NCBI GenBank assembly: GCA_027061805.1 | Contig: JAMOWA010000008.1 | Span: forward strand, 86-64,085 | Direction: 5' to 3' | Source of the DNA: Thermoanaerobaculia bacterium | GTDB taxonomy: Bacteria > Acidobacteriota > Thermoanaerobaculia > Thermoanaerobaculales > Sulfomarinibacteraceae | Length of the DNA stretch: 64,000 nt | Shown here: positions 15,417 to 32,702 of the stretch, piece by piece | How the letters are laid out: every line of letters starts with the position of its first letter | Numbering within the stretch: position 1 is the first letter of the stretch | Program-made: the position numbers and the translations under genes | Notes under the pieces: generated by a model | Seen by the model: only the letters and a program-made list of their open reading frames with translations | Databases searched by the model: none | Told to the model about the DNA's origin: nothing

Positions 15417-15417
15417 A

Positions 15418-15606: not shown

Positions 15607-15635
15607 TTGACGGGGGAGGGTGCCGGGCCTAGGAT
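15607..15635 (+). promoter_or_regulatory. Candidate sigma70 promoter of recA
   Basis: TTGACG (15607-15612), 17-bp spacer, TAGGAT (15630-15635), 45 bp upstream of the recA ATG. Confidence 0.45.
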
Positions 15636-15679
15636 GGGAGAGCCCACCACGCTGCGGATCTCGCAGAAGGAGAGAACTC

Positions 15680-16708
<1,029 letters not shown>

Positions 16709-17110: not shown

Positions 17111-17205
17111 CCGTGCCCGGTCGCTGTCCTCCGCCGCCCGCGATCTCCGGGCCCGGTCTCCGGGGACGGGTACTGCTAGACTGTCCGCTGGAGGTTCGAT
17201 CGGGG

Positions 17206-18345
17206 ATGAGACTCAGCCGCTTCATTGCAGTTCTCCCGTTGCTGATGGCCACGTTCGCCGGCGCCCGGGGGGCCGGTCCGGTACCCCGGCCCGAACCGTC
17301 GCCGGTGCCGGACCAGGACCTCAAGATGCTCCGGTTCATCGAGAGGGCGCTTCCCTGGTACCCGGACTCCACCTTCGCGATCGTGGGTGACGACCGGTAC
17401 CAGACACCCTCGGGTGCGTACCGTGTGATCAACGTCAGGCGGGAGTGCGACAGCCGCTTCCTCAGCGGAATCACCACCTGGGTGGTGGACGAGGCGGCCA
17501 GGGTGGTCTGGCAGGGCGCCGTGGGCAGCCTGCCCGGCGAGAAGGTGGCCGCATCGGGGAGCCTGGAGGCGTTCCTCAAGGACTTCCTGCCGCCGGCGCT
17601 GCTCCGGGCCATGCGGTTGAAGACCACGGTGGTGTGGGACGCCGGGAGTGATCCCACGGGGGCGCTCATACCGTTCGGGCTGGAGGTCCGGACGGGGTAC
17701 GGGACCTACCGCATGCCGGCCGCCGTGACCTCGGATGGCGCACGGATGGTGCTGGGGCCCACCCTTCCCCTCGATCAGGACCCCGTGGAGTGGCGGCGCG
17801 CGCTGCTCGCAAGGAGCGACCTGGTGATGTGGGACCATCCCGGTTCCCAGGCGAGGGTGACCATCGTGGAGTTCTCAGACTTCGAGTGCCCCGGATGCAA
17901 GACCAAGTGGCCCGTTGTGGCCTCGGTGCTCGAGGAGCTCTCCACGAAGGTCCGTCACGGCATGGTGAACTTCCCCCTCACCAACATTCACCCCTGGGCC
18001 TTCCGGGCGGCCTCGGCGGCCTGGTGCGTCACGCGTCAGGATCCCACGGCGCTGATTCCCCTCAAGGAGCTGTTCTACTCCATGCAGCGGGACATGGAGA
18101 CCTCCCTGGTGGGTCCCACGGCGAGGGATTTCGTGGCGGGTCGGGGCCTGGACGAGGCGGCCTTCGACGCGTGTTTCCTGGGGAAGGATTCCATTGCCGC
18201 CGTCCACCGGCAGATCGAGCTGGCCCAGCGTCTCCGTGTGGACGCGACCCCCACCTACTTCGTCAACGGCTGGAAGGTCCAGGCGCCGAAGAAGGAGTGG
18301 TTCGGCGACCTCGTCAGGCGACTGGTCTCCGGACAGGAGCCGTAG
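17206..18345 (+). CDS. DsbA-family thiol:disulfide oxidoreductase with an N-terminal extra domain
   Basis: Start MRLSRFIAVLPLLMATFAGARG (signal peptide). Thioredoxin-fold FSDFECPGCK. The upstream part of the 700-aa track ORF is repeat DNA. Confidence 0.8.
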   Translation: MRLSRFIAVLPLLMATFAGARGAGPVPRPEPSPVPDQDLKMLRFIERALPWYPDSTFAIVGDDRYQTPSGAYRVINVRRECDSRFLSGITTWVVDEAARVVWQGAVGSLPGEKVAASGSLEAFLKDFLPPALLRAMRLKTTVVWDAGSDPTGALIPFGLEVRTGYGTYRMPAAVTSDGARMVLGPTLPLDQDPVEWRRALLARSDLVMWDHPGSQARVTIVEFSDFECPGCKTKWPVVASVLEELSTKVRHGMVNFPLTNIHPWAFRAASAAWCVTRQDPTALIPLKELFYSMQRDMETSLVGPTARDFVAGRGLDEAAFDACFLGKDSIAAVHRQIELAQRLRVDATPTYFVNGWKVQAPKKEWFGDLVRRLVSGQEP

Positions 18346-18974: not shown

Positions 18975-21107
18975 ATGGCTGAACCCGCCGTGCGGCCGGT
19001 TTCGCCCGTCGAGTGGCACCCCCTGGGTCTTCCGGAGGGGCGGGAGCGCCCCGTGGAACGCCTCGCCCGGGAGATCCTCGAACGGTGCCGGGGTGAGGGT
19101 CCGGCCAACTGTGTCGCGCGCTGTCCGCTCCACGTGGACGCTCGGGGCTACGTCCAGCTGACGGCACAGGGGAAGTACCGGGAGGCCCTGCAGCTGGTCC
19201 GGGAGAGGCTGCCCTTTCCCGGCGTGCTGGGCTATGTCTGCGCCCATCCCTGTGAGGCCCACTGCAAGCGGATCGACGAGGACGAGCCTGTCAGGATCCG
19301 TGACATCAAGCGGTTTCTCGCCGAATGGGAGCCGGGCGAGCCGCAGCACCTCGTGGACTGCGAGCCCGACCGGGGACGCAGCGTGGCCGTGGTGGGGGCC
19401 GGTCCCGCCGGGCTCCTGGCGGCCCACGACCTCCGCCGGAGGGGATATGCGGTCACGGTGTTCGAACGGACCGACCGGATCGGTGGATGCCTCGTGTGGA
19501 AGATTCCGCCCTACCGTCTCCCCAGGAAGGTCGTGGAGCGGGACCTCTCGGTGATCGCGGCCCTGGGGATCCCCGTGGAGACGGGGGTCGAGGTGGGGGC
19601 AGACGTGGCGCTGGAGGAGCTCAGGGAACGCTTCGATGCGGTGCTCCTCCTGGTGGGGCGGGAGGGAGCCGTCCGGATCCTGTCCCACACCGACCCCGGA
19701 CTGGTGACGCCCGAGGGCCGTCTCCGCGTGGATCCCCTCACCTGTTCCACGGCGCTGGAGGGCGTGTTCGCGGGCGGTGACGCGGTGAGTGGCCCCGGGA
19801 CCGTGATCTCCGCGCTGGCGCTGGGCCGCAGGGCGGCCGGGTCCGCCATGAGGTTCCTCGAGGGGCGAGACCTCCAGGAGGATCGCGAGCCTCTGCTGCC
19901 CCCGAGACTGCTCTGGACGCTGGAGATCCCCGAGAGCGAACGGAAGCGCCGCCAGCGGACTCCGGTGATGCTCACGCCACCGCCACCTCCGCTCGACGAG
20001 GCTGCGGCGCGGGAGGAGGCGGAACGGTGCCTGGACTGCACCTGTGGCCTCTGCGTCCGGGACTGCGAGTTCCTCGAGGACCACTGCGACTCGCCGAAGG
20101 ACATCGCTCGGCGGGTGCTGGAGGATCCCGACGATCCCGGGGTGCTCAGGACCACCTATTCGTGCAACATCTGCTCGCTGTGCGCCGCGGTGTGTCCCGA
20201 GGGACTCGACACCGGGGCGCTCCTGCTGGAGGCCCGCCGGGAGGCCGTCCGCAGGGGCACGGGCCCCCTCCCGGTGCACAAGGGGATCGTGAGCTACTGG
20301 AAGGCCGGTGTGGGGAACACCTTCACCACCGTCATGCCGGAGCCCGGCCGCAGGACCAGCCGGCGGCTCTTCTTCACCGGGTGCGCGCTCCCCGCGGTCT
20401 CGCCGGCGAACACGCTCCGGATCTACGACGAGCTCAGGAAGCACTACCCGGGGACCGGCGTGATGATGTACTGCTGCGGGGCTCCGGTGGAGCTCCTGGG
20501 CATGGATGCGGAGTTCGACCGGACCCGCGAGGACATCCTCAGGCTTGCGGACCAGGTGGGTGCCGACGAGCTGGTGGCGGCATGCCCCGACTGTGCCCAC
20601 ACGCTGAAGGAGGCGGTCCCGGAGCTCACCATCACCACGGCATGGGAGCTGCTGGCTGGAAGGTGGCAGCCGCCGCGGCGCGAGGGTTCTCCGGCCGTCG
20701 CCATCCACGACTCGTGCAAGGCGCGGCACGCCCCGGAGATCACCAGCTCCGTCCGGAGGATCCTCCAGGACGGTGGCGCGGCCATCGAGGAGATCGAGTA
20801 CAACGGCGAGCTCGCGCGGTGCTGCGGCTTCGGCGGCATGATCTACCCGGTGGATCCCGAGCTCTCCCGGAGGGTCAGCCGCCGGAGGGCCGGGGAGACT
20901 CCCCTGCCCCAGGTGACCTACTGTGCGGGCTGCCGGATGGCCATCGCCGGGGTCGGGAAGCCGGCGGTCCACATCCTGGACTTCCTGATGAGCGATGACT
21001 GGGAGAAGGCGGCGGCGAAGAAGGCGCCGGGCTCCGTGACGCGGTATGCCAACCGTCTGAGAACCAAGTGGGCGTTCAGGCGGCTGAAGCCCCTCGCGAC
21101 GGACTGA
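18975..21107 (+). CDS. Fusion protein: GltD-like FAD oxidoreductase lacking the second (NAD(P)H) Rossmann domain + HdrC-like 2x[4Fe-4S] + HdrB/HdrD-like CCG domains
   Basis: N-terminus CVARCP..VCAHPCEAHC and VAVVGAGPAGL...GVFAGGDA. Centre CLDCTCGLCVRDC and CNICSLCAAVCP. C-terminus has CCG motifs MMYCCGAP and LARCCGFGG. Confidence 0.8.
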   Translation: MAEPAVRPVSPVEWHPLGLPEGRERPVERLAREILERCRGEGPANCVARCPLHVDARGYVQLTAQGKYREALQLVRERLPFPGVLGYVCAHPCEAHCKRIDEDEPVRIRDIKRFLAEWEPGEPQHLVDCEPDRGRSVAVVGAGPAGLLAAHDLRRRGYAVTVFERTDRIGGCLVWKIPPYRLPRKVVERDLSVIAALGIPVETGVEVGADVALEELRERFDAVLLLVGREGAVRILSHTDPGLVTPEGRLRVDPLTCSTALEGVFAGGDAVSGPGTVISALALGRRAAGSAMRFLEGRDLQEDREPLLPPRLLWTLEIPESERKRRQRTPVMLTPPPPPLDEAAAREEAERCLDCTCGLCVRDCEFLEDHCDSPKDIARRVLEDPDDPGVLRTTYSCNICSLCAAVCPEGLDTGALLLEARREAVRRGTGPLPVHKGIVSYWKAGVGNTFTTVMPEPGRRTSRRLFFTGCALPAVSPANTLRIYDELRKHYPGTGVMMYCCGAPVELLGMDAEFDRTREDILRLADQVGADELVAACPDCAHTLKEAVPELTITTAWELLAGRWQPPRREGSPAVAIHDSCKARHAPEITSSVRRILQDGGAAIEEIEYNGELARCCGFGGMIYPVDPELSRRVSRRRAGETPLPQVTYCAGCRMAIAGVGKPAVHILDFLMSDDWEKAAAKKAPGSVTRYANRLRTKWAFRRLKPLATD

Positions 21108-21118
21108 GGGAGGCGGGA

Positions 21119-23566
21119 ATGGGAGGTACGGTGACCATCACGGTGGACGGGCGGGAGGTGGAGGTGACACCGGGCAGGCTCCTGCTCGACGTCCTGAGGG
21201 AGCAGGGCATCCGGGTCCCGACACTCTGCCACGACGACCGCCTCAAACCCTACGGGGGATGCCGGCTCTGTGTGGTGGAGCGCAGGGACGGGCGTCCGGG
21301 GCTCGTGACGGCGTGCTCCACACCGGTCCAGCGGGGCATGATCATCGAGACATCGACCCCCGCCATCGACGAGGCGCGCCGACGCCAGCTCCAGCTGCTG
21401 GTGCTGGATCACCGCATGGAGTGCCCCACCTGCGAGCGGACGGGGGACTGCCGCTTCCAGGAGCTGATCTACGAGTACGGGATCCCGGAAGAACGCCTGC
21501 CCTTCGAGCGCCGGACCAGGCCGCGGGACGAGGGCTCCGCCGTGATCATCCGCGATCCGGAGAAGTGCATTCTCTGCGGCCGGTGCGTCCGGCTCTGCGA
21601 GGAGGTGCAGGGAGTGGCGGAGATCGGCATGGTGGGACGGGGCCTCGAGGCCCGGGTGGCCACGCTCCTCGACAGTCCGCTGGACTGCGAGTTCTGCGGC
21701 CAGTGCGTGAACGCCTGCCCCGTGGGGGCCCTGGTGGCCAGGCCCCACGCCACCGAGGTGCCCGCGTGGCTCCGCACGAGGGCCACCACCACCTGCTCCT
21801 TCTGCAGCTCGGGCTGCCAGGTGGAGGTGGAGACCTGGGATGGCCGGCTCCAGAACGTCACCGCCGACCCGGCGGCCGAGCCCAACCGGGGCAAGCTCTG
21901 CGCCAGGGGCTGGCTCGGATGGGACATCCTGGAACATCCCGAGAGGCTGACGACACCCCTGGTGCGCCGTGAAGGGCGCCTCGAGGAGGCCACCTGGGAG
22001 GAGGCGCTCGAGAGGGTCGCGGAGGCCCTCGGGGCGGCCCGTGACGGCGGCGGTGCGATCGCGGGCGTGGGGACGGCCCGCATGACCTGCGAGGACGCCG
22101 CCCTCTTCGGGCGGCTGCTGGCCGGGGAGCTGGGCGCCGCCACGGTGGAGGTGGGACCAACGGGTGGTGCGACGGCTCTGGCGGCCGGCATGGGGGCCGC
22201 CGTGGGTGCCGCGGCCTCCACCGCCACCTTCGAGGATCTTCGGGAGGCCGACCTGGTGCTGGTGCTGCGGGCCGACCCGGGCCGCACCCACCCCCTCGTC
22301 AAGACCGAGCTGGTCCAGGGGGCCGTCCAGAGGGGCCGTCCCTTCGTCCTGGCCCACTGTCTCTCGGGAGGTCTGGAGCGCCATGCGGCCGTTCACCTGT
22401 GCCTCCAGCCGGGGACCGACCACGTGCTTCTCCACGGAATGGCGCGTCTTGTGCTGGATCATCTCGACCGGACCCCCTCCGAGGGCACCGATGGCTTCGG
22501 GGCCTGGAGCGAGGCTCTCGGGGCCTACACACCCGATGTGATCGAACGGGTGACCGGGGTTGTCGAGGATGACCTCCGGGAGCTCGTGGACCGTCTTCTC
22601 GGGGCGGAACGCCCCCTGGTGGTGGTTCCCACCGGCCTCGGCATCCCCGGTGACGAGGCCCGGGTGGCCCGGGCCGCGGCGGAGCTCATGGGCCTGCTGG
22701 GCTGGAACGGAGCGCCCGGGGGCCGTGTGCTCGTGCTGGGGGAGAAGGCCAACCTGCAGGGCGTCCTGGCCTCCGGCCTGGGTCCCTCCCTCGGGGATGG
22801 GGAGCGCCGTCACCTCGAGGAGACCATGGCGGCGGCGGGCCTCGGACAGGTCCAGGTCCTCTACCTGGTGGGGGAGGACCCCGTGGGATCCTGGCCCCGG
22901 CGGTTCGCAGGGCGGGCCGCGGTCCGCGGAGCGCGTTTCGTGGTGGTGCAGGACGCCTTCGCCACGGCCACCACCCGCCTGGCGGACGTGGTGCTCCCCG
23001 TGGCGATCCTCGGGGAGCGCCGGGGGACGGTCGTGGGAGCGGACGGGGTCCCCAGGCGCCTCGAGAGGGTCCTGGAGCCGCCCGAGGGGCTGCCGCAGGA
23101 CGGCGAGCTCCTGGCCGCGCTGGCCGGGCGCCTGGGTGTGGATGTGGGGGACTGGCGGACCGCCGGGGCACCCGCGGCGACGGGGACCGATGCCCGCCCC
23201 GTGATCCGGTTCACACCGCCCGATCCGCCGGAGGAGATGCCACGCCACTCGGGCATGCTGCTGGACGCCTCCCCGCAACTGTTCCACTCGGGCCTGGTGA
23301 CGGCGTTCAGCGAGAGACTCCAGGAGCTGGCGCCCACCGTGGCCGCCCGCCTGGCGCCACGGGACGGACGGGAGGCCGGCATCTCCAACGGGGAGCAGGT
23401 CCGCGTGGCGGTGGACGGCAGGGAGCTCCTGCTCCGGGCCCGGTACGACCGGCGCGTCCGCCCCGGAACGGTGCTGGTGTCCTGGTCCGGTCTCGAAGAC
23501 GGTGCGGCCGGCGTCATGGACCACGATGCCGCTGCCACGCCTGCAGCCATCCGGAGGATGTCATGA
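21119..23566 (+). CDS. NuoG-like / HydA-FdhA-scaffold Fe-S subunit (2Fe-2S + 4Fe-4S clusters + degenerate molybdopterin-oxidoreductase fold)
   Basis: ATG 21119 (RBS GAGGGAGG). N-terminus ITVDGREV..CHDDRL..GGCRLC. Also HRMECPTCERTGDC, CILCGRCVRLC and CEFCGQCVNACP. Mo-domain cluster CSFCSSGC..KLCARG, but no recognisable Cys/Sec-His catalytic dyad. Confidence 0.8.
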   Translation: MGGTVTITVDGREVEVTPGRLLLDVLREQGIRVPTLCHDDRLKPYGGCRLCVVERRDGRPGLVTACSTPVQRGMIIETSTPAIDEARRRQLQLLVLDHRMECPTCERTGDCRFQELIYEYGIPEERLPFERRTRPRDEGSAVIIRDPEKCILCGRCVRLCEEVQGVAEIGMVGRGLEARVATLLDSPLDCEFCGQCVNACPVGALVARPHATEVPAWLRTRATTTCSFCSSGCQVEVETWDGRLQNVTADPAAEPNRGKLCARGWLGWDILEHPERLTTPLVRREGRLEEATWEEALERVAEALGAARDGGGAIAGVGTARMTCEDAALFGRLLAGELGAATVEVGPTGGATALAAGMGAAVGAAASTATFEDLREADLVLVLRADPGRTHPLVKTELVQGAVQRGRPFVLAHCLSGGLERHAAVHLCLQPGTDHVLLHGMARLVLDHLDRTPSEGTDGFGAWSEALGAYTPDVIERVTGVVEDDLRELVDRLLGAERPLVVVPTGLGIPGDEARVARAAAELMGLLGWNGAPGGRVLVLGEKANLQGVLASGLGPSLGDGERRHLEETMAAAGLGQVQVLYLVGEDPVGSWPRRFAGRAAVRGARFVVVQDAFATATTRLADVVLPVAILGERRGTVVGADGVPRRLERVLEPPEGLPQDGELLAALAGRLGVDVGDWRTAGAPAATGTDARPVIRFTPPDPPEEMPRHSGMLLDASPQLFHSGLVTAFSERLQELAPTVAARLAPRDGREAGISNGEQVRVAVDGRELLLRARYDRRVRPGTVLVSWSGLEDGAAGVMDHDAAATPAAIRRMS

Positions 23567-24174
23567 GCGAGCAGGTTCTGGAGCGGGCTCCGGCCCCGGC
23601 GGATCTCCCGGGCTTCTTCGGGGCCCACGAGCCGCTGCCCCGTGAGGATGTGGATCCGGCCATCTGGCCCTTCATCGACCGGTGGGTCGCGACCCATCGG
23701 GGTGGTCGGGAGCGCCTCATCCCGCTGCTTCACGCCATCCAGGAGCAGCTGGGATACCTGCCGTTCCCCGTCCAGGAGTACGTGGCGGAGAAGCTGGGCC
23801 TCTCGCCCATCCAGGTCTACGGGGTGGTGAGCTTCTACCACTTCTTCACCACCACGCCGCGGGGGAGGTACCAGCTCAAGGTGTGCATGGGAACGGCCTG
23901 CTTCGTCCGGCATGCCCAGAGCATCGTGGAGACCCTGAACGACGTGCTGGGGATCGGTGTGGGAGAGGTGACGGAGGACCGGATGTTCAGCCTGGAACAG
24001 GTGCGGTGCATCGGGGCCTGCGGCCTGGCACCCGCCATGATGGTCAACGACGAGGTGCACGGCAACCTGACGAGGAACGACGTGAGGCGGCTGGTCCGCC
24101 GCCTCCGGGCGAAGGAGCGCAAGGCGGCTGCGAAGGCTGCCGGGGAGGCCGACGGTGGCACGGACGAGCAGTGA
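23563..24174 (+). CDS. nuoE: NuoE/HydC-like thioredoxin-fold [2Fe-2S] subunit
   Basis: 203 aa. YQLKVCMGTACFVRH ... VRCIGACGLAPAMMVND, typical of the NuoE/HoxE/HydC family. Family-level call only. Confidence 0.85.
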   Translation: MSEQVLERAPAPADLPGFFGAHEPLPREDVDPAIWPFIDRWVATHRGGRERLIPLLHAIQEQLGYLPFPVQEYVAEKLGLSPIQVYGVVSFYHFFTTTPRGRYQLKVCMGTACFVRHAQSIVETLNDVLGIGVGEVTEDRMFSLEQVRCIGACGLAPAMMVNDEVHGNLTRNDVRRLVRRLRAKERKAAAKAAGEADGGTDEQ

Positions 24175-26065
24175 TCCGGCGGTGGCTCCGCGGCTGACAC
24201 CGGGGGACCTGGGACGGCTCCGGGAACGGATCCGGCCGGCGGTCCAGGAACGGCTGAGGTCGGAGCGCGGTGCCGTGCCCGCACGGCGGGAGGTGCTCGT
24301 CTGTGCCGGTGGGGCCTGTCTCTCCTGCCGGTCGGGGACGGTGGCCGAGGCCTTTGCCGCCGCCATCTGCGAGCGTGGCCTCGGCGAGCGGGTCCGCGTG
24401 GTGAACGTGGGGTGCATGGGCCTGTGCGAGGCGGGTCCCCTGGTGCTGGTCTCGCCGGACGGGGTCTACTACCCCAGGCTCGAGCCGGAGCAGGTGCCGC
24501 GCGTCGTCGAGGAGCACCTGGAGGGGAACACCCCCGTGGAGGAGCTGGAGCTGACATGGGAGGGGCCCGACGGGGAGGTCCTCCGGAGCCGGGACGTGCC
24601 CTTCTTCGCACGTCAGCTCAAGATCGCCCTGAGGAACTGCGGTGTCATCGATCCGGGGAGCCTGGAGGAGTACATCGCCATGGACGGCTACGCCGCGCTG
24701 GCGAGGGTGCTCCACGAGATGGAGCCGCAGGAGGTCCTGGACACGCTCAAGCGCTCGGGGCTCCGGGGCCGTGGCGGGGCCGGGTTCCCCGCCGGGCTGA
24801 AGTGGCAGTTCGTCCGCGACGCTCCCGGTGGCGTGAAGTACGTGGTGTGCAACGCCGACGAGGGGGACCCCGGCGCCTTCATGGACCGCAGCATCCTGGA
24901 GGGTGACCCGCACTCGGTCATCGAGGCCATGGCCATCGCGGGCCGCGTGGTGGGTTCGCGGAACGGCTACGTCTACGTGCGGGCCGAGTACCCCCTGGCC
25001 ATCGAGCGCCTGGAGAACGCGCTGGAGGCGGCCCGATCGGCCGGCCTGCTGGGCGAGGACATCCTGGGGTCGGGCTTCGGCTTCGACCTGGAGATCCGGA
25101 TCGGGGCGGGGGCGTTCGTCTGCGGGGAGGAGACGGCGCTGATGCACTCCATCGAGGGGCGCCGGGGCATGCCGAGGCCGCGCCCCCCGTTTCCGGCGCA
25201 GCAGGGGCTGTGGGGCAAGCCCACCCTGCTGAACAACGTGGAGACCTGGGCCAACGTCCCACCGATCCTCCTCCGGGGGGCCGAGTGGTACGCCGCCATC
25301 GGAACCCGCAGGAGCACGGGAACGAAGGTCTTCGCCCTGGCCGGAGACATCCGGAACACGGGGCTCGTCGAGGTCCCCATGGGCATCACCCTCAACGAGG
25401 TGGTGCACGAGATCGGCGGCGGAATCCGGACCGGCCTCCCGTTCAAGGCGGCCCAGAGCGGCGGACCGTCTGGGGGGTGCATCCCCTCGGACAGGGCCGA
25501 TGTCCCCATCGACTACGAGTCGCTCCAGGAGCTGGGCTCCATCATGGGTTCGGGCGGGCTGATCATCATGGACTCCACCACGTGCATGGTGGAGCTCTCG
25601 CGGTTCTTCCTGGACTTCCTGGTGGACGAGTCGTGCGGCAAGTGCCCACCCTGCCGGATCGGGACGCGGGTGATGCTGAACATCCTGGAGCGCATCACCC
25701 GGGGCGAGGCCTCGGAGGATGACCTGGATACCCTGGAGTCGCTGGGGCACCACATCCGGACCAGCTCGCTCTGCGGCCTGGGCCAGACGGCTCCCAACGC
25801 CGTGCTCTCCACGCTCACCCACTACCGGGAGGAGTACCTGGCCCACATCAGGGATGGGAAGTGCCCGGCCGGCAAGTGCAAGGCGCTGCTGACCTACACT
25901 ATCCTGGAAGAGGTGTGCAACGGCTGTGGTCTGTGCGCCAGGGCGTGCCCTGCGTCGGCGATCACGGGTGAGATCAAGCACGTCCACGTGATCGACCAGG
26001 ATCTCTGCATCCACTGCGGCGCGTGCCTCGGGGCCTGTCCCAGCGATGCCATCCTTGCGGAGTAG
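24155..26065 (+). CDS. nuoF: NuoF/HydB-like FMN/NADH-binding subunit with N-terminal [2Fe-2S] thioredoxin-like domain and C-terminal 2x[4Fe-4S] ferredoxin domain
   Basis: GLRGRGGAGFP, NADEGDPGAF, ESCGKCPPCR and SLCGLG core motifs. N-terminal VLVCAGGACLSC..VGCMGLCEAGP. C-terminal CNGCGLCARACP and CIHCGACLGACP. Exact start (GTG 24155) is uncertain. Confidence 0.85.
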   Translation: MARTSSDPAVAPRLTPGDLGRLRERIRPAVQERLRSERGAVPARREVLVCAGGACLSCRSGTVAEAFAAAICERGLGERVRVVNVGCMGLCEAGPLVLVSPDGVYYPRLEPEQVPRVVEEHLEGNTPVEELELTWEGPDGEVLRSRDVPFFARQLKIALRNCGVIDPGSLEEYIAMDGYAALARVLHEMEPQEVLDTLKRSGLRGRGGAGFPAGLKWQFVRDAPGGVKYVVCNADEGDPGAFMDRSILEGDPHSVIEAMAIAGRVVGSRNGYVYVRAEYPLAIERLENALEAARSAGLLGEDILGSGFGFDLEIRIGAGAFVCGEETALMHSIEGRRGMPRPRPPFPAQQGLWGKPTLLNNVETWANVPPILLRGAEWYAAIGTRRSTGTKVFALAGDIRNTGLVEVPMGITLNEVVHEIGGGIRTGLPFKAAQSGGPSGGCIPSDRADVPIDYESLQELGSIMGSGGLIIMDSTTCMVELSRFFLDFLVDESCGKCPPCRIGTRVMLNILERITRGEASEDDLDTLESLGHHIRTSSLCGLGQTAPNAVLSTLTHYREEYLAHIRDGKCPAGKCKALLTYTILEEVCNGCGLCARACPASAITGEIKHVHVIDQDLCIHCGACLGACPSDAILAE

Positions 26066-26074
26066 GGGGGGACC

Positions 26075-26455
26075 ATGGCGACCAAGACGATCCTGCTGGT
26101 GGACGACGACGAGATCTTCGTGGAGGCCGTCTCGGCGGTTCTCGAGGGACGGTACCGCGTGATCACGGCGGCAAACGGGACCGAGGGCCTGGCGAGGGTG
26201 CGGGAGGACCGTCCCGACCTCATCGTGCTCGACGTGATGATGGATCACCTCTCCGAGGGGTTCGACGTGGCGCGGAGCCTCAGGAACGACCCGGACCTGG
26301 CCGGGATTCCCATCATCATGCTGACGGGCGTGGACCAGGTGTACAACGTCCGCATGGAGGTGGACGAGTCCTGGGTGCCGTGCGAGAAGTATCTGGAGAA
26401 GCCCATCGCCCCCGATGAGCTCCTGGCGCACGTGGCCGAGCTGATCGGGGAGTGA
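26075..26455 (+). CDS. Stand-alone CheY-like receiver protein (no output domain)
   Basis: 126 aa. ILLVDDDE ... LIVLDVMM ... KP motifs. Confidence 0.85.
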   Translation: MATKTILLVDDDEIFVEAVSAVLEGRYRVITAANGTEGLARVREDRPDLIVLDVMMDHLSEGFDVARSLRNDPDLAGIPIIMLTGVDQVYNVRMEVDESWVPCEKYLEKPIAPDELLAHVAELIGE

Positions 26456-27903
26456 CAGTGGCCGCGGACGACCACTTCGCCTACATCTTTGCGGCCGAGC
26501 TCCACGAGCGCCTCCGCTGGTTCATCACGCTGCGCTGGATGGCCGTGGCCGGTCTGGCGGTGGGCTCGCTGGTCGGTCCCCGGATGGGTCTGGAGTCGGT
26601 CTGGCCGAGCCTCTTCGTGGTGGCCCTCTTCGTGGCGGCCTACAACCTGTACTTCAGCTGGCGCCTGGGGGGGCGGTCGGGCCAGGAGCGTCCGCTCGGG
26701 GGCCTGAGGCACTGCGCCATCCGGCAGATGGTGATGGACCTGGCGGCGCTGATCGTGGGCGTCCACTTCACCGGGGGCCTCCAGAGCCCCCTGCTGCCGT
26801 TCTTCGCCTTCCACATGGCCATCGGGACCATCGTGCTGTCCACGCGCCTCATGTACCTCATCGCGGGGTGCACCTCGCTGGCCATGCTCCTGCTCTACAT
26901 TCTCGAAGAGAACGGGGTCCTCCGGTACCATCCGCTCGATCCCCTCCACGGCATCTGCAGCCGGGCCTGCTACCTCAACATGGTCAGCTTCGTCATGGCG
27001 CTCTTCGGGATCGTCTATCTCACGGATTCGGTCACCGGCCGGTTCAAGGAGCGGAACATCAAGCTCCACGAGGCCAAGGCGGCGCTCCAGGAACGGACCG
27101 AGGAGCTCCAGCAGCTGCTGGACGAGATCGCGGAGGTGGAGGAGCGGAAGTCCCACTACATGAGGATCTCCGCCCACCAGCTGCGTTCCCCCCTGGGTAC
27201 GGTGAAGACCTCCCTCATGGTCCTGACCCAGGGTTACGTGGACCCGGGATCGGAGCGGGGCCGCAAGCTCCTGGAGGGTGCCATCGAGCGCGTGGACGGG
27301 CTCCTGCGGATCGTCAACGATCTGCTGGAGCTCGCCAAGATCCGGGAGGGGCGGAACCGGGCACCGTGGGCACGCGGCGTCAACCTGAACCAGCTCGTGG
27401 CGGACATCTTCGACGCGGTATCGCCCCTGGCCGACGAGCGGGAAATCCGGCTGGTCCCCCTGGTGGAGGGGGTGGCCGTCCTGGACTGGGGGATCCCTCC
27501 CGACCTGGTCTTCGCCCTCGAGAACCTGGTCCAGAACGCCATCAAGTACTCGCTCCCCGGCGGACAGGTGACGGTGGGGCTCCGGGTGACCGGGGGCGGG
27601 GAGGCCGTGCTCACCGTGGAGGACCAGGGAATTGGCATTCCCGAAGAGTTCGTGGAGCAGGTGATGGACGAGTTCGTCCGGGCCCCCAATGCGAAGGCCC
27701 ACGCCGCAGAGGGGACCGGACTCGGGCTCTCCATCGTGCGGGAGGTGGTGGAGGCCCACGGGGGGCGGATCACCGTCCGGAGCGTGGAAGGCGAGGGCAG
27801 CACCTTCACTGTTACGCTGCCGTTGCATCACCGTCCCCCGGAGGTGGAAGCCTTGTTACACGACGGTAACGATGGCGGTTACCAGACACCTACGGGGTCG
27901 TGA
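26452..27903 (+). CDS. Membrane sensor histidine kinase (multi-TM N-terminus, HisKA + HATPase_c)
   Basis: H-box ISAHQLRSPLG. N/G boxes NLVQNAIKYS, DQGIGIP and GTGLGLSIV. About 5-6 TM helices at the N-terminus. GTGA overlap with the receiver gene. Confidence 0.85.
   Translation: MTVAADDHFAYIFAAELHERLRWFITLRWMAVAGLAVGSLVGPRMGLESVWPSLFVVALFVAAYNLYFSWRLGGRSGQERPLGGLRHCAIRQMVMDLAALIVGVHFTGGLQSPLLPFFAFHMAIGTIVLSTRLMYLIAGCTSLAMLLLYILEENGVLRYHPLDPLHGICSRACYLNMVSFVMALFGIVYLTDSVTGRFKERNIKLHEAKAALQERTEELQQLLDEIAEVEERKSHYMRISAHQLRSPLGTVKTSLMVLTQGYVDPGSERGRKLLEGAIERVDGLLRIVNDLLELAKIREGRNRAPWARGVNLNQLVADIFDAVSPLADEREIRLVPLVEGVAVLDWGIPPDLVFALENLVQNAIKYSLPGGQVTVGLRVTGGGEAVLTVEDQGIGIPEEFVEQVMDEFVRAPNAKAHAAEGTGLGLSIVREVVEAHGGRITVRSVEGEGSTFTVTLPLHHRPPEVEALLHDGNDGGYQTPTGS
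27855..27882. promoter_or_regulatory. GTTAC-N6-GTAAC palindrome (copy 2) plus an extra GTTAC half-site
   Basis: GTTACacgacgGTAAC (27855-27870), then gatggcgGTTAC (to 27882). Inside the 3' end of the kinase gene, about 106 bp upstream of P2. Confidence 0.6.
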
Positions 27904-27975
27904 GGCGCCCGCCAGCATTCACTCCTGGATACTCCTAATCCATTGAGGATCAGTTGGTTGCCGCTGCGAATGGAG

Positions 27976-27991
27976 TGGTATGTCCCTTGCA
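27976..27991 (+). promoter_or_regulatory. Candidate sigma54 promoter P2
   Basis: TGGTATGtcccTTGCA, canonical GG-N10-GC spacing, 62 bp upstream of the rhodanese ATG. Confidence 0.65.
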
Positions 27992-28052
27992 ACCGGGTGG
28001 AACAAGCGGAGGGTTCCTCCGCCGTGTGGGAAACCAGCAAAGGAGGACGGAC

Positions 28053-29033
28053 ATGAAGCATGGATCGAGTTCGAGGTTGGTGACGGTCGTGGCACTGCTG
28101 CTCGTGGTCGGGCTTGCGATGCCGGCCCTGGCGGGCAACGGCTACAAGGGGTTTGCCAGGGGCGAGGCCCTGATCACGGTCAAGGAGCTGAAGTCACTCA
28201 TGGACGCCAAGGATCCGAAGCTCGTGATCCTGGCGGTGGCGAAGACCACGGACTACCGGCTGGGCCACATCCCCGGGGCGTTCCAGATCTGGCGGCCGGA
28301 CTACGAGCCCAAGGAGGGGGTGGAGTTCCCCTACGAGGGCATGGCCCTGGACCGCGAGGACTTCCAGGCCTTCGTGCGGAAGTTCGGGATCGACAACGAC
28401 TCCAAGGTCGTGATCTACGACCACAAGTACGACGCCACGCGCGTGTGGTGGATGTTCTACCTCTACGGGAAGACCGACTGCCGGGTCCTCGACGGTGGCT
28501 ACCAGGCCTGGAAGAAGGCGGGCTACGACACCGACATCCTGGCGCCGGATCTCCCCAAGGAGCCCGGCACCTTCACGGCCTCCGCCGCTCTCCCGGGCTG
28601 GTCCGTCAGCGTCACCACCATCTGGCGCTGCAAGACCTCGGACGACTACCAGCTCTGGGACACCCGGGGCACGAAGGAGTGGACGGGCGAGAAGCTCAAG
28701 AAGGGGGCCTATGCCAAGGGCCGTATCCCCTGGGCCAAGCACTGCAACTGGCCCAACTTCAAGAAGCCCGTCACCGAGGGCGGCAAGGCCACCGAGTTCA
28801 AGACCGCCGCGGAGATCCAGAAGGTCATCGAGAAGTTCGGCATGGACAAGAACAAGCACCAGGTCTTCTACTGCCAGTCGGGCGTGCGGACCACCACCGA
28901 GATGTTCGCTCTCTACCTGATGGGCTGGGATCCGGCCCAGCTCCACAACTACGACGGGTCCTGGATCGAGTGGAGCTACTACCACAAGAACCTGCCGGAC
29001 TCCGGTGCGATCCTGTGCGAGGCCTGCAAGTGA
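28053..29033 (+). CDS. Secreted tandem-rhodanese sulfurtransferase (thiosulfate/3-mercaptopyruvate sulfurtransferase family) with C-terminal CEAC tail
   Basis: ATG 28053 after AGGAGG. Signal peptide MKHGSSSRLVTVVALLLVVGLAMPALA. Two rhodanese repeats. Active-site loop YCQSGVRT. Ends ..AILCEACK. Confidence 0.85.
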   Translation: MKHGSSSRLVTVVALLLVVGLAMPALAGNGYKGFARGEALITVKELKSLMDAKDPKLVILAVAKTTDYRLGHIPGAFQIWRPDYEPKEGVEFPYEGMALDREDFQAFVRKFGIDNDSKVVIYDHKYDATRVWWMFYLYGKTDCRVLDGGYQAWKKAGYDTDILAPDLPKEPGTFTASAALPGWSVSVTTIWRCKTSDDYQLWDTRGTKEWTGEKLKKGAYAKGRIPWAKHCNWPNFKKPVTEGGKATEFKTAAEIQKVIEKFGMDKNKHQVFYCQSGVRTTTEMFALYLMGWDPAQLHNYDGSWIEWSYYHKNLPDSGAILCEACK

Positions 29034-29123
29034 CCACATGATCTCCGATCCCCCGGGGCCCGGCCGGGTCCCGGGGGGCCGTGCCTCCCGGCCGCCGGGG
29101 GGCGGATTTCGAGGGGGCGAAGC

Positions 29124-29882
29124 ATGAACAACGACGAAGTCACCGGGACAACTCCATCCAAGGGCAGGCCCTGGGTGAAGCTTGTGGTGGTCGTGGCGGC
29201 CATCGTGGTGCTGATCCTTCTGGCCAACCATTTCGGCGTGTTCGACATGCTCAAGGAGGGCACGCTCAAGGAGCGGGTGGAACGGCTGGACGCCTTCTTC
29301 CAGGGGATGGGGCCGTGGGCACCCGTGGCGTTCATCCTCATCTGGATCGTGGCCTGCGTCCTGCTGCTGCCGGGATTGCCCATCTCCATCGTCGGCGGCC
29401 TGATCTTCGGTGCCCTGTGGGGGTCCGTCTGGACCACGGTCGGGGCGAACCTCGGAGCCGCCGCGGCGTTTCTCATCGGGAGGTACGCGGCCAGGGACAT
29501 GGTGGCAGGATGGGTTCGGAAGAACCCGACCCTGAGGAAGATCGACGAGGGGGTGAAGAAGCAGGGCTGGCGGATGCTCATGATCACCCGGCTGGTGCCC
29601 ATCTTCCCCTTCAACATCCAGAACTACGTCTACGGGCTCACGGACATCCCCTTCAGGACCTACGTCCTGGTGACCTTTCCCTGCATGATTCCGGCCACCA
29701 TCGCCTTCAACTTCGCGGCGGGGTCGGCCCGGGAGGTGATCCTCTCGGGAGGGCAGCCGGACGCGGTCAAGAAGACCATGATCTACCTGGCCATTGCGGC
29801 CGTCTTCTTCGTCCTGCTGTCCCTCATCCCCAACTGGGTGAAGAAGCGGTACGCCAAGGAGGACCTGCTCCAGGAGCAGTAG
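29124..29882 (+). CDS. TVP38/TMEM64 (DedA-related) family membrane protein
   Basis: 252 aa, multi-TM. GANLGAAAAFLIGRY and RLVPIFPFNIQNY segments, typical of the TVP38/SNARE-associated family. Confidence 0.75.
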   Translation: MNNDEVTGTTPSKGRPWVKLVVVVAAIVVLILLANHFGVFDMLKEGTLKERVERLDAFFQGMGPWAPVAFILIWIVACVLLLPGLPISIVGGLIFGALWGSVWTTVGANLGAAAAFLIGRYAARDMVAGWVRKNPTLRKIDEGVKKQGWRMLMITRLVPIFPFNIQNYVYGLTDIPFRTYVLVTFPCMIPATIAFNFAAGSAREVILSGGQPDAVKKTMIYLAIAAVFFVLLSLIPNWVKKRYAKEDLLQEQ

Positions 29883-29910: not shown

Positions 29911-29942
29911 GGGGGGACGCCGAGGCGTCCCCCCCTTGTTGT
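29911..29942 (+). terminator. Rho-independent terminator after the rhodanese/TVP38 unit
   Basis: 10-bp perfect stem ggggggacgc/gcgtcccccc, loop cgag, followed by cTTGTTGT. Confidence 0.7.
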
Positions 29943-30120: not shown

Positions 30121-30136
30121 CGGCACGAATCTTGCT
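30121..30136 (+). promoter_or_regulatory. Candidate sigma54 promoter P3
   Basis: CGGCACGaatcTTGCT, 54 bp upstream of ATG 30190. Confidence 0.65.
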
Positions 30137-30189
30137 CAAGTGTTCTGTGGAGCACTGGAACAAGACCCGTATCGGGCGAGGGAGGTGCG

Positions 30190-31089
30190 ATGACGAGCAC
30201 GCTGGTACTCCCATGGGTGGCGCTGGTCCTGGTGGTCTTCGTGGCCGGGTCGATCTGGCGGGCCTGGCGGTACGCTCGGGCCCCCATGCACCTCAGGTGG
30301 GACCTCTATCCGGTGGCCCACGAGCCGGCTCCCCGGAGGGACCACGGGGGCTCCTACCTCGAGGAGAGGGAATGGTGGACCAGGCCCCGTGAGAGAAGCC
30401 TCCTGGGAGAGGCCGTCTTCATGGCCGAGGAGATCCTCTTCCTGAAGGGGGTCCGGGCCAACAACCGCCGCCTCTGGTGGGGCTCGTTTCCATTCCACTG
30501 GGGGCTCTACCTCCTGGTGCTCACCACGGTGGGGATCTTCCTGGGTGTGGCCGGCTGGCGGCTGCCCCTGGATTCGGGCCTCCTCTCCCTCGGGGCGCTC
30601 ACGGGTGGCGGCCTGGTGCTGGCGGGGTCGGTGATCCTGCTCGTCCTCAGGAGCACCGATCCGAAGCTCAGGCCCTACACCGCACCGGTGGACCGGCTCA
30701 ACCTGCTGTTCCTCGCCCTCTTCGGGGCCCTGTGCGTCGGGGTGGCCGTCCGGTACGGCCTGGGGCACGTGGTGACCGTCCTGTCGGGGGTCCTGCGGGG
30801 TCACGAGGTCCGGGTGGGCCGGCTGCTGGCGGCCCAGATGGCGGTGGGTGGCCTGTTCCTCATGTACATGCCGTTCACGCGGATGGTGCACTTCTTCGCC
30901 AAGTACTTCACCTATCACGATGTCCGGTGGGACGACACGCCCATGGAGCCGGGGAGCCCGCTGGCCGACCGGCTCGCCGCGGCCCTGAACTACGGCGTCG
31001 ACTGGTCCGCCGGGCACGTGAGGACCGGGAAGACCTGGGCCGAGGTGGCGACCACGCTGCCCGATGAGGAGAAGGGGGGGAAGGCCTGA
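30190..31089 (+). CDS. DsrM-like (NarI/HdrE-type) membrane heme-b subunit, module 1
   Basis: 299 aa, multi-TM. NarI-like pattern with conserved His in TM helices (FPFHWGLY, MVHFFAKY). TGATG overlap with the following DsrK-like gene. Confidence 0.75.
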   Translation: MTSTLVLPWVALVLVVFVAGSIWRAWRYARAPMHLRWDLYPVAHEPAPRRDHGGSYLEEREWWTRPRERSLLGEAVFMAEEILFLKGVRANNRRLWWGSFPFHWGLYLLVLTTVGIFLGVAGWRLPLDSGLLSLGALTGGGLVLAGSVILLVLRSTDPKLRPYTAPVDRLNLLFLALFGALCVGVAVRYGLGHVVTVLSGVLRGHEVRVGRLLAAQMAVGGLFLMYMPFTRMVHFFAKYFTYHDVRWDDTPMEPGSPLADRLAAALNYGVDWSAGHVRTGKTWAEVATTLPDEEKGGKA

Positions 31090-32702
31090 TGGAGAACGCT
31101 CCGAGACCTGCGAGCCGGGAGGAGCTCAACCGTTTCCTGACCGAGCACGAGGGCGTGGACCCGAGGCGGCTGGTGCCGTTGCCCTTTCCCTACGAGGACT
31201 GGGAGGACGCTCCCATTCCCGAGCTGAGCGAGGACAAGCGGAGCCGCATCGAGGTGGGGCCGGACGGGGTCGCGGCGGCCCAGATCAAGGTGCCCGCGGA
31301 CGACGAGGAGAGGGACCGGCGGGTGGCGGCGTTCCTGGAGGGGCTGGCCAAGCTCTTCACGAAGGAGAACAACTGGACCTTCCTCCAGCCGCTCATGCTC
31401 TCCATGGAGAACTGCGTCAAGTGCCAGACCTGCGCCGAGGCCTGTCCCATCTACACGGGGTCCGGCAGGATGGAGGCCTATCGCCCCACCTTCAGGGCGG
31501 AGGTGCTCCGCAAGATCGTCAACCGGTACCTGAAGCCCGGCGGCCGGATCCTTCCCGGGCTCCGCGGCAACGACGTGGAGCTCAGCTGGGACGTGCTGGT
31601 CAGCCTGGCCGAGCTGTCCTACCGCTGCACCCTGTGCCGGCGCTGTGCCCAGACCTGTCCCGTGGGAGTGGACAACGCCCTCATCACGCGGGAGATCCGC
31701 AAGCTGTTCAGCCAGGAGCTCGGCATCGCCATGCCGGAGCTCCACGAGACCGGGACCATCAAGCAGCTCACCGTGGGTTCCTCCACCGGGCTCAACCCGG
31801 CGGGCCTGGCCGACATCATGGAGTTCGCCGAGGAGGACATCCAGGAGAAGACCGGCCTGGACATCACCATGCCCTTCGACGTGGAGGGTGCCGAGTACCT
31901 GGTGATGCACAATGCCGGCGAGTTCCTGTCCTGGCCCGAGAACCTCCAGGCCTTCGCCATCATCCTGGAGCTCGCGGGGGTGAGCTGGACCCTCTCCTCC
32001 GAGCTGGTGGGCTACGACTCGGTGAACTACGGCCTGTTCTACGACGACGTGCAGTACTCCCGCATCGCGCTGAAGCACTACGAGGTGGCCAGGAAGCTGG
32101 GGGTCAGGAAGATGATGGTGGGCGAGTGCGGCCACGCCCACAAGGCGCTGATGCCCATCGCCGACCGGCTGATTCCCGAGCAGCTCAGGGTCCGGACGGA
32201 GAGCTGCCTGGTGGTGCTCGAGGACATCGTGGTCAACGAGAAGATCCTGCTCGACCCCTCGCGGAACGACTTCCCGGTGACCCTCCACGATCCCTGCAAC
32301 ATCACCCGGTCCATGGGGATCGTCGAGCCCCAGAGGAAGATCCTCCGCAAGATCGCCCCGAGGTTCCGGGAGATGGAGCCGCACGGGGTCCACAACTACT
32401 GCTGCGGCGGGGGCTCGGGATTCGCCATCTGCCAGTCGATGAACTTCCCGGACTGGAGGACGAGGGTCTCGGGCCGCCTCAAGTTCCGCCAGATCCTCGA
32501 GGCGTTCTCGGACTGCATCGAGCCGGAGACGCCCAAGTACGTGTGCGCACCGTGCTCCAACTGCAAGGGGCAGATGCGGGATCTCCTCAACTACTACGAG
32601 GCCTGGGACCGCTGCGGGATCCTCTACGGCGGCCTGGTGGAGCTCATCGTCAACGCCATGGTGGACGTGCGCGAGGGCTTCGTGGAATGGGAGATGCACT
32701 GA
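31089..32702 (+). CDS. DsrK-like (HdrD-type) Fe-S/CCG-domain subunit, module 1
   Basis: CVKCQTCAEACP and CTLCRRCAQTCP ferredoxin motifs. CCG domain HNYCCGGGSG. About 95-aa N-terminal extension. Confidence 0.8.
   Translation: MENAPRPASREELNRFLTEHEGVDPRRLVPLPFPYEDWEDAPIPELSEDKRSRIEVGPDGVAAAQIKVPADDEERDRRVAAFLEGLAKLFTKENNWTFLQPLMLSMENCVKCQTCAEACPIYTGSGRMEAYRPTFRAEVLRKIVNRYLKPGGRILPGLRGNDVELSWDVLVSLAELSYRCTLCRRCAQTCPVGVDNALITREIRKLFSQELGIAMPELHETGTIKQLTVGSSTGLNPAGLADIMEFAEEDIQEKTGLDITMPFDVEGAEYLVMHNAGEFLSWPENLQAFAIILELAGVSWTLSSELVGYDSVNYGLFYDDVQYSRIALKHYEVARKLGVRKMMVGECGHAHKALMPIADRLIPEQLRVRTESCLVVLEDIVVNEKILLDPSRNDFPVTLHDPCNITRSMGIVEPQRKILRKIAPRFREMEPHGVHNYCCGGGSGFAICQSMNFPDWRTRVSGRLKFRQILEAFSDCIEPETPKYVCAPCSNCKGQMRDLLNYYEAWDRCGILYGGLVELIVNAMVDVREGFVEWEMH

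Follow-up and report, generated by a model that had tools for sequence, protein, structure and literature searches.

A candidate Bfu-type complex with an Hdr-type site in place of an NADP(H) site, encoded in the dsr region of a Thermoanaerobaculia bacterium

How NADH and ferredoxin are linked to the last steps of sulfite reduction, namely how DsrC trisulfide is reduced and sulfane sulfur processed, is still debated, and for the recently recognised Acidobacteriota that carry dsr genes the question is essentially unexplored. It is raised by four genes, P1 to P4, in a stretch of 64,000 nucleotides from a Thermoanaerobaculia bacterium (contig JAMOWA010000008.1, ~70% GC; hereafter the window). The four genes (18975-26065, + strand) are co-oriented and closely packed, and the first of them encodes a GltD-HdrCB fusion protein that has no NAD(P)H domain of its own. 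From where would such a protein draw its electrons, and what would it reduce? We propose, with a probability of about 0.55, that P1 to P4 assemble into a single Fe-S flavoprotein complex, soluble or attached to the membrane, that belongs to the Bfu family (HydABC/NfnABC), is of Nfn type, and in which the NADP(H) site has been replaced by an Hdr-type site for S-S bond exchange. The operon is a concrete, widely conserved and purifiable candidate, of interest to researchers of sulfur metabolism and of electron bifurcation alike.

Domain architecture of P1 to P4

The four genes and the domains of P1 (positions in amino acids, aa, where so marked) are as follows.

18975..21107, + strand: P1, 710-aa GltD/NfnL-like Fe-S flavoprotein without NAD(P)H subdomain, plus HdrC-like and two HdrB-type CCG domains (Pfam, NCBIfam, alignments, AlphaFold2, Foldseek)
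19077..19331, + strand: Fer4_20 of P1 (aa 35-119), two [4Fe-4S] clusters equivalent to A6/A7 of NfnA
19380..19661, + strand: N-terminal part of the P1 FAD domain (aa 136-229), GxGxxG (VGAGPAG)
19662..19748, + strand: stretch replacing the NAD(P)H subdomain (aa 230-258, ~29-30 residues; alignments)
19749..19862, + strand: C-terminal part of the P1 FAD domain, GVFAGGD, motif conserved clade-wide
20016..20210, + strand: HdrC-like 2x[4Fe-4S] domain (C352/355/357/360/364; C397/400/403/407), Pfam Fer4_17, profile match to HdrC
20370..20609, + strand: CCG domain 1 (C470, C500-C501-G, C537-P-D-C540), HdrB-type five-Cys motif, Pfam CCG
20703..20945, + strand: CCG domain 2 (C581, C616-C617-G, C650-x-x-C653), Pfam CCG, profile and alignment
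21119..23566, + strand: P2, 815-aa BfuA/NuoG/FdhA-like scaffold
23563..24174, + strand: P3, 203-aa HydC/NuoE/BfuC-like thioredoxin-like [2Fe-2S] subunit
24155..26065, + strand: P4, 636-aa HydB/BfuB-like subunit, start codon uncertain

Pfam searches placed in P1 a Fer4_20 domain (aa 35-119), the VGAGPAG motif at 139, the GVFAGGD motif at 262, Fer4_17 at 351-412 and two CCG domains, which are the motifs that an initial annotation of the window had read in this protein. The same annotation had reported that P1 retains only about 19 residues where its in-window paralog DsrL has about 190, including the second Rossmann motif. BLASTP aligned P1 46-228 with DsrL 82-275, and P1 from 259 onward with DsrL from 461 onward, leaving ~30 residues of P1 (229-258) opposite ~185 residues of DsrL that include the motif GGGDTAVDAA; the domain was indeed missing, and the two counts were revised accordingly. 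An identical gap appeared against NfnA, StnC, NfnL and GltD, as well as in the multiple alignment, so that none of these comparisons revealed an intact NAD(P)H domain in P1: ~150-185 residues of the NAD(P)H-binding Rossmann subdomain were absent, and no second dinucleotide motif was found in the P1 alignments. The FAD site and the A6/A7 clusters were present, with GxGxxG, GGD, the six Fer4_20 cysteines (C38, C46, C50, C89, C93 and C97) and K112, which aligns with the Lys170 ligand of NfnA, all conserved. Among 121 clade members, conservation of the Fer4_20 ligands was at least 0.99 and K112 was found in 99%.

The AlphaFold2 model of P1 had a predicted local distance difference test score (pLDDT) of 92.3 and a predicted template modelling score of 0.83, with pLDDT falling to 78-84 at the replaced stretch, and ended in a basic amphipathic helix. 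By both sequence and fold, the best solved relatives of the N-terminal half were the NfnL-like domains of Nfn-BfuA (9n5u_A, 9bov_A) and StnC (8oh5_C) rather than free-standing GltD or NfnL. Foldseek searches with the full-length model returned mostly matches to this half (NfnA/StnC), and for the C-terminal half EtfD only. P2 matched the remaining parts of NfnA-type chains (9bov_A 564-866, 9n5u_A 10-104). Because the N-terminal half of P1 and P2 match different parts of the same NfnA/StnC chains, and because of K112, the two are best read as an NfnA divided over two polypeptides, with an HdrCB module where the NADP(H) subdomain would be.

In the C-terminal half of P1, all cysteines of the HdrC-like domain were invariant in the clade, as were all ten of the CCG domains (C470/500/501/537/540 and C581/616/617/650/653; 85-121 sequences). 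This half is remote from solved proteins by sequence. In profile searches against the PDB its best match was EtfD of M. smegmatis (E value 1.3e-16), followed by HdrB (~1e-5) and HdrC. The EtfD clusters are non-catalytic: CTG gives rise to a linear [3Fe-4S] cluster, and at the other cluster His583 fills the last coordination position (PMC13083937). Alignment of the family profile with EtfD (9ojn_A) paired CCG of P1 with CTG of EtfD, and CPDC with CPHC. With CCG in both domains and Asp instead of the EtfD His, the site is, at the sequence level, of the catalytic five-Cys HdrB type and not of the electron-wire type of EtfD.

P2 comprises an N-terminal [2Fe-2S] domain, a His-ligated [4Fe-4S], a 2x[4Fe-4S] domain, a CxxCxxGC [4Fe-4S] and a molybdopterin-like domain. 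Its five BfuA/NuoG-type cluster motifs lie in Fer2_4, NADH-G_4Fe-4S_3 (H-x3-C-x2-C-x5-C), Fer4_Nqo3 and Molybdop_Fe4S4, and correspond to A1-A4 (and A5). The N-terminal region is HydA-like, and the top solved matches of P2 were FdsA-type formate dehydrogenases. In the alignment with E. coli FdhH, however, U140/H141 were replaced by G/G and R333 by G; the selenocysteine/Cys-His dyad and the Arg were absent from the window P2 and from 11 clade relatives, which keep the CxxCxxGC [4Fe-4S] motif. P3 matched PF01257 (E value 6e-51), carries a [2Fe-2S] cluster of the C1 type and had HydC, NiFe-Bfu C and NfnC as its best PDB relatives.

P4 contains an N-terminal [2Fe-2S], an FMN/NADH site, the [4Fe-4S] B1, a His/Cys site and a C-terminal 2x[4Fe-4S] domain (Pfam Complex1_51K and NADH_4Fe-4S). 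Residues 44-633 matched HydB nearly full length (812 bits to 7q4v_B, 804 bits to 7t2r_B). C50/C55/C87/C91, the 'HIRDGKCPAGKC' stretch and the two CxxCxxCxxxCP motifs align with HydB, and in residue-level alignments to HydB, NiFe-Bfu B and NfnB all Cys/His ligands are kept. Non-bifurcating homologues (NuoF/FdsB/HoxF) are devoid of the N-terminal [2Fe-2S]/Zn site, B2 and the C-terminal B3/B4 (Schut et al., PMC9304861; the extra BfuB sites serve as a criterion in PMC11829005 as well). P4 has each of these extra sites, that is, the N-terminal [2Fe-2S]/Zn (B5), the His/Cys site (Zn, B2) and the C-terminal 2x[4Fe-4S] (B3, B4). Thus, the descriptions of P2 as a NuoG-like scaffold without a Cys/Sec-His dyad, of P3 as NuoE-like and of P4 as NuoF-like with HydB-type extra domains were all borne out by the alignments to FdhH, to the solved HydC-type subunits and to HydB.

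Relatives of P1 and conservation of the cluster

An exhaustive search of representatives, combined with alignments, sorted the GltD-HdrCB proteins into three groups. The first is the window clade, where the truncation extends to the entire P1 family and is no peculiarity of the window, and where the FAD motifs are kept. A second, very large family of ~840 aa with the full NAD(P)H subdomain occurs in Chloroflexota, Desulfobacterota and Firmicutes (for example P0362 of Desulfitibacter alkalitolerans). The third, NF045663 ('diclust_near_Sec', ~760 aa), is truncated, has a mostly degenerate FAD GD motif and bears a C-terminal extension of ~100 aa. P1 was ~38% identical to the intact family and ~33% to NF045663, to which it does not belong, given a score below the cutoff (527.2 bits against 530, with profile positions 6-659 of 759 matched) and a different gene context. 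No characterisation of the intact family or of NF045663 was found in the literature searched.

It is plausible that the P1 lineage has lost an NAD(P)H domain of its own. Pairwise identity placed the window clade nearest to the intact family in every domain, whereas an outgroup-rooted neighbour-joining tree of the N-terminal half grouped the two truncated families together (77/100), and the two analyses disagree on whether there were one or two losses. No homologue of P2, P3 or P4 stood alongside the intact family at 26 loci, 14 of which had rhodanese and/or VTT genes; several members were beside YeeE-TusA, and some were fused to VTT. The absence of NuoEFG-like neighbours from the intact sister supports a lost domain and a recruited module, and the occurrence of truncated lineages beside electron-input modules supports the logic of the initial annotation. 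The association with rhodanese and VTT is inherited from the intact family. These families would represent a natural case of module swapping, in which a GltD-HdrCB protein either has its own NAD(P)H domain or does without it and is combined with a Bfu module, a molybdenum hydroxylase or a thioredoxin-reductase-like protein.

Several arrangements of relatives were observed in passing. Intact ~840-aa proteins in L008 (8001-16968, Desulfitibacter alkalitolerans KK211100), L041 and L049 are followed by YeeE-TusA-YeeE, with a lipoprotein rhodanese and VTT/DedA nearby; certain organisms have the reductase and a VTT domain in one fusion protein, and P0344 and P0354 are among the intact cases. This triad of exported rhodanese, DedA/VTT protein and cytoplasmic CCG reductase is widespread in anaerobes and apparently unstudied, and the present locus draws attention to it. 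Members of NF045663 directly follow a molybdenum enzyme of the xanthine dehydrogenase family; in L011 (5188-10603, Desulfofarcimen acetoxidans CP001720) and L012 (5203-10546) a DUF7479 gene and a radical SAM gene come next, and P0401 and P0402 are fused to MoCoBD domains, a partnership that is apparently uncharacterised. In L064 (200-9113) a protein of another truncated lineage (680 aa) stands in the order AhpC, TrxR-like protein with a thioredoxin domain, GltD-HdrCB, VTT, ABC transporter, an arrangement that hints at electron input through a thiol relay.

Conservation of the cluster was surveyed in 93 fetched loci, 92 obtained by tblastn and L093 separately, together with gene tables. The P1 clade has at least 120 clusters at 90% identity, the best 120 being 59-96% identical and nearly all ~705-720 aa long; a scan of genome contigs with P1 alone yielded 3 close loci. 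The nearest protein relatives come from metagenome-assembled genomes of Acidobacteriota/Thermoanaerobaculia. P2 directly followed P1 in 17 of 17 informative loci (16 plus L093), P3 came next in 14 of 15 and P4 in 11 of 13, with intergenic gaps of 0-11 nucleotides and translational coupling. The proposal that an NADH module stands in for the lost domain was thus supported by this invariant P1-P2 order and by the intact sister family, which lacks such neighbours. After P4, a response regulator and a PilS-like kinase were found in 9 loci and, after the kinase, a rhodanese and a DedA/VTT gene in 7. Nearly all rhodaneses of these clusters bear a signal peptide or lipobox. DsrM/K-like genes lay downstream in the window and in L006, L007, L013 and L018. 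In L093 (GCA_975961275.1, 8836-20305) the order was P1-P2-DsrM-like-DsrK-like-YeiH-DsrA-DsrB, with no P3, P4, response regulator, histidine kinase, rhodanese or VTT gene at the locus; its P1 (P0121) is the most divergent truncated relative (49% identity).

Proposed complex and alternative explanations

In the complex that we propose, P4 (FMN, B1, B3, B4 and the N-terminal [2Fe-2S]) and P3 (C1) would constitute the BfuBC core that reacts with NAD(H) and ferredoxin, P2 would act as a BfuA-type cluster wire (A1-A5) with a catalytically dead formate-dehydrogenase-like domain, and P1 would dock on P2 like the NfnL-like domain in NfnA/StnC. In Csac NfnABC the path is FAD-A7-A6-A3-A2-A1-[B1-FMN-C1]-B3-B4, with A7 Lys-ligated (PMC11829005). 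In P1 to P4, NADH, probably together with reduced ferredoxin, would be oxidised at the P4/P3 core, and electrons would travel via the P2 clusters to the A6/A7 equivalents of P1, which like its FAD would be linked to the two HdrC-like [4Fe-4S] clusters, and through these to the HdrB-type noncubane pair, where an S-S bond would be reduced. Without a hydride partner, the FAD might buffer electrons on a side branch or serve some other purpose. Reduction is the likely direction because the organism is of the reductive Dsr type, with DsrD present. Complex formation, electron path, bi- or confurcation, direction and substrate are all features that we infer from the gene and protein sequences; overall, the operon probably encodes a new cytoplasmic route for S-S bond reduction beside the Dsr pathway. 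The Bfu family would thereby gain a new class of third substrate, an S-S bond at an Hdr-type site.

Two kinds of candidate substrate are suggested by the neighbouring genes. Synteny with DsrMK and dsrAB points to DsrC trisulfide or disulfide; the exported rhodanese and DedA/VTT protein, predicted to be co-transcribed, point to a persulfide, polysulfide or thiosulfate-derived sulfane sulfur, which these two proteins would bring in. The initial suggestion of a DsrC reductase found support in the DsrMK-like synteny and in dsrAB of L093, but the link to rhodanese and DedA/VTT is equally strong and the substrate is not established. The thiosulfate/(HS- + sulfite) couple, with an E0' of ~-402 mV, lies in the range of the Bfu substrates H+/H2, CO2/formate and NADP+. 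That the complex is a true bi- or confurcating Bfu enzyme with an S-S bond, preferably in thiosulfate-derived sulfane sulfur, as its mid-potential third substrate is a tentative extension that we hold to be distinctly improbable. If true, it would provide Dsr-type sulfur metabolism with a cytoplasmic, ferredoxin-coupled energy-coupling step, in which the rhodanese would capture sulfane sulfur outside the cell and the DedA/VTT protein would pass it across the membrane.

Several observations weigh against the complex as proposed. In profile searches EtfD, which conducts electrons to quinone, matches the C-terminal half of P1 better than HdrB does, and the role of an FAD that is conserved although the hydride donor site is gone is unexplained. 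The NuoF-like gene is missing from the L007 cluster (GCA_015657895.1, 13398-14450), where a response regulator begins ~100 nucleotides after NuoE; L093 has neither P3 nor P4 in its cluster; and in L015/16 P4 is a 1124-aa NuoF-GltD fusion in which the ferredoxin-type C-terminus is replaced. These three exceptions make an obligatory ferredoxin-coupled mechanism doubtful. The exported rhodanese would have no direct contact with P1. The potentials of typical disulfide couples lie above that of NAD+/NADH, so that confurcation would be thermodynamically unneeded unless the substrate had a very low potential. Of the initial interpretation, the architecture stood, whereas substrate and bifurcation are unproven; bifurcation is read solely from the BfuB/BfuC sequence features, which favour it, and is set against the same three exceptions. 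The L015 fusion (14009-17383; also in L016) consists of an N-terminal [2Fe-2S], FMN and NADH_4Fe-4S domains, and then a full GltD-like module (Fer4_20 plus Pyr_redox_2 with NAD(P)H domain).

A simple NADH-dependent reductase that does not bifurcate, with a NuoEF-like pair as in Hox, FdsABG and complex I and no role for ferredoxin, would account for the loci in which P4 is dispensable or altered and for an intact sister family that works with a single NAD(P)H site, and NADH alone would usually suffice to reduce a disulfide or persulfide acceptor. We nevertheless consider it unlikely, since P4 has all the features that are absent from non-bifurcating homologues (Schut et al., PMC9304861) and matches HydB of bifurcating HydABC over nearly its full length. 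The CCG domains could also be an electron wire as in EtfD/HdrDE, in which case the complex would be an NADH/ferredoxin dehydrogenase feeding a membrane partner (DsrM-like cytochrome b, the menaquinone pool or DedA), an alternative input to DsrMK. The EtfD match of the C-terminal half in profile and fold, the recurrence of DsrM/DsrK-like genes directly downstream, the fusion of some sister-family members to a VTT membrane domain and the basic amphipathic helix at the P1 end all favour such a wire. It is nonetheless quite unlikely: EtfD inactivity rests on CTG and His (PMC13083937), where P1 has CCG twice and Asp, as HdrB does; P1 has no transmembrane or haem domain; and the adjoining DsrK-like protein already serves as cytoplasmic partner of the DsrM-like protein.

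Another possibility is a third substrate outside dissimilatory sulfur metabolism, in thiol homeostasis or detoxification (a low-molecular-weight disulfide, peroxide, selenite or tellurite) together with DedA and rhodanese. DedA/VTT proteins and rhodaneses turn up as unspecific partners in stress response and transport, the truncated relative of L064 has AhpC, a TrxR-thioredoxin fusion and VTT as its neighbours, the intact family is spread over many lineages that need not all carry dsr genes, and an AhpC gene lies ~7 kb upstream of P1 in the window. The repeated adjacency to DsrMK-like genes, the L093 pair beside dsrAB and the YeeE/TusA sulfur-import genes that adjoin intact relatives make this explanation very unlikely. 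Hardly credible, finally, is a misread known enzyme, whether an FdsABG-like NAD-dependent formate dehydrogenase, suggested by the top solved matches of P2, or an NfnABC/Stn transhydrogenase, whose chains P1, P3 and P4 match. The first was rejected because the Sec/Cys-His-Arg catalytic residues are missing from P2 across the clade, and the second because the NADP(H)-binding subdomain that defines Nfn is missing from P1.

Comparison with known systems placed the proposed S-S bond-exchanging complex closest to NfnABC/StnABC (9bov, 9n5u, 8oh5), whose chains were the best matches of all four proteins in sequence and fold. Shared are BfuB/BfuC (P4, P3), the cluster wire with its dead Fdh-like domain (P2) and Fer4_20 plus FAD with a Lys-ligated A7 (P1). 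Here, however, the NfnL-like domain is a separate polypeptide instead of a BfuA insert, its NADP(H) subdomain is deleted, so that the third substrate cannot be NADP(H), and P1 adds HdrC-like and two CCG domains that Nfn does not have. Likeness to HydABC/NiFe-HydABCSL extends to P4 (HydB), P3 (HydC-like) and the HydA-like N-terminus of P2; H-cluster and NiFe module are absent, and the extra subunit is a flavin and CCG protein. Two HdrC-type [4Fe-4S] and two five-Cys CCG motifs recall the HdrBC part of methanogen HdrABC, but the similarity is remote (E value ~1e-5, by profile), HdrC and HdrB are fused to one another and to a GltD-like domain, the donor module is of Bfu type, MvhD is absent, and no HdrA-like gene was found in 18975-29882. 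BfuABC and Hdr-like subunits also share one cluster in Bam-Bfu (BamBCDEFGHI class II benzoyl-CoA reductase, PMC9304861) and in L073, but these have MvhD, a flavoprotein of HdrA type and a distinct catalytic enzyme, unlike the CCG protein fused to a truncated GltD-like domain seen here. The L073 cluster (452-11119; also L045, L048 and L070-L075) is a separate Bfu and Hdr cluster encoding NuoE-like and HydB-like proteins, a 1141-aa BfuA-HdrA-like fusion, MvhD, an FrhB-like protein, a polyferredoxin, an FlxA/PyrK-like protein and an HdrD-like CCG protein.

An electron route from NADH or menaquinol to DsrC through a CCG-type site has been proposed or shown for FlxABCD-HdrABC and DsrMK(JOP). In this both systems resemble the proposed complex, and a DsrK-like gene adjoins the cluster; FlxA is PyrK-like and not NuoF-like, however, and DsrK contains a single CCG domain and works with a membrane partner. 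The intact GltD-HdrCB family has the same overall fusion and rhodanese/VTT partners but keeps its NAD(P)H subdomain and stands alone, whereas NF045663 shares fusion and truncation and differs in its degenerate FAD GD motif, its extension and its molybdenum-enzyme neighbour. Among solved structures, EtfD (M. smegmatis, 9ojn)/HdrDE comes nearest to the HdrCB-like half of P1; EtfD is membrane-anchored with haem b and has CTG/CPHC, a linear [3Fe-4S] and a shielded non-catalytic cluster, in contrast to CCG/CPDC of P1. SfrAB of Geobacter is composed of a molybdenum-less FdhA/NuoG-like SfrA and a GltD-like, NADPH-oxidising SfrB. Its two-gene pairing of scaffold and flavoprotein resembles the P1-P2 core that occurs alone in L093, but SfrB, the NADPH oxidoreductase subunit (PMC3543383), keeps its NADPH domain and is without an HdrCB part.

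The Bfu catalogue of Schut et al. comprises FeFe, NiFe, Nfn, Fdh, F420, Wor, FdhFeFe, Bam, Codh, Por, Mbh, Nuo and Rub types (PMC9304861). Under this scheme the complex would be a Type 3 Bfu (extra subunit, A3 present), and no such type is in the catalogue. In line with the expectation that the subunit combination is uncharacterised, no description of it was found in the Bfu classification, in the papers on dsr-carrying Acidobacteriota or elsewhere in the literature searched, which covered subscription journals thinly, so that this absence is not proof.

Transcription unit and genomic setting

The further features of the region are listed below.

26075..26455, + strand: single-domain response regulator, 9 nucleotides after P4, position kept in related loci
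26452..27903, + strand: membrane histidine kinase (PilS-like with six transmembrane helices, HisKA, HATPase_c), 4-nucleotide overlap with the response regulator stop, conserved
27954..29033, + strand: two-domain rhodanese, probable start ATG 28050, signal peptide, active-site loop CQSGVRT
29124..29882, + strand: DedA/VTT-domain membrane protein, conserved partner of rhodanese and the GltD-HdrCB family
29911..29934, + strand: terminator-like GC hairpin with T-rich tail, directly 3' of the VTT gene
30121..32702, + strand: DsrM-like (30121-31089) and DsrK-like (31068-32702) pair, recurring downstream of the cluster in relatives

An AGGAGG Shine-Dalgarno site precedes P1. P2 starts at ATG 21119, with GGGAGG at 21108-21113 and a gap of 11 nucleotides to P1; alternative starts at 21068 and 21116 were dropped in its favour. 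The P3 start overlaps the P2 end via ATGA. From P1 through the VTT gene the gaps are 11, -4, -20, 9, -4, 50 and ~90 nucleotides, and no terminator was found between these genes, the hairpin at 29911-29934 being the sole terminator-like one in the unit. Because of the short gaps and this single hairpin after VTT, the transcription unit probably runs on to 29882 and comprises eight genes. A promoter scan found no promoter, although in a host that is an acidobacterium of 70% GC such a scan is uninformative. Two listed frames, 27980-29030 and 29081-29882, had no matches or nonsense matches and were discarded for the real genes at 27954-29033 (rhodanese) and 29124-29882 (VTT). The signal peptide indicates that the rhodanese is exported. 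The stand-alone receiver-type response regulator and the PilS-like kinase (26075-27903) lie inside the operon, a position kept in the 9 related loci.

The window contains a reductive-type dsr island with dsrA, dsrB, dsrD (44441-44689), dsrL (45119-46975), dsrN and a YeiH-like gene, and its dsrC keeps both C-terminal cysteines. A second DsrK-M-O-P set is located at 35195-40083. The two DsrMK-like sets (30121-32702, and 35195-37418 with DsrO) are separated by a second pair of response regulator and PAS-kinase genes (33518-35122), and the DsrP homologue (38200-40083) has a C-terminal multihaem cytochrome c3/c7-like domain, possibly a fusion of DsrP-DsrJ type. Between dsrD and dsrL, the open reading frame at 44584-45195 (~200 aa as listed, helical, His/Glu-rich) is a putative gene only. 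Upstream of P1 (16243-18921), two putative calls are a 700-aa open reading frame that overlaps recA and ends in a DsbA-like thioredoxin domain, and a 171-aa open reading frame with a weak metallo-beta-lactamase match; at the same position L006 has ADH, a DsbA-like gene and a 93-aa open reading frame.

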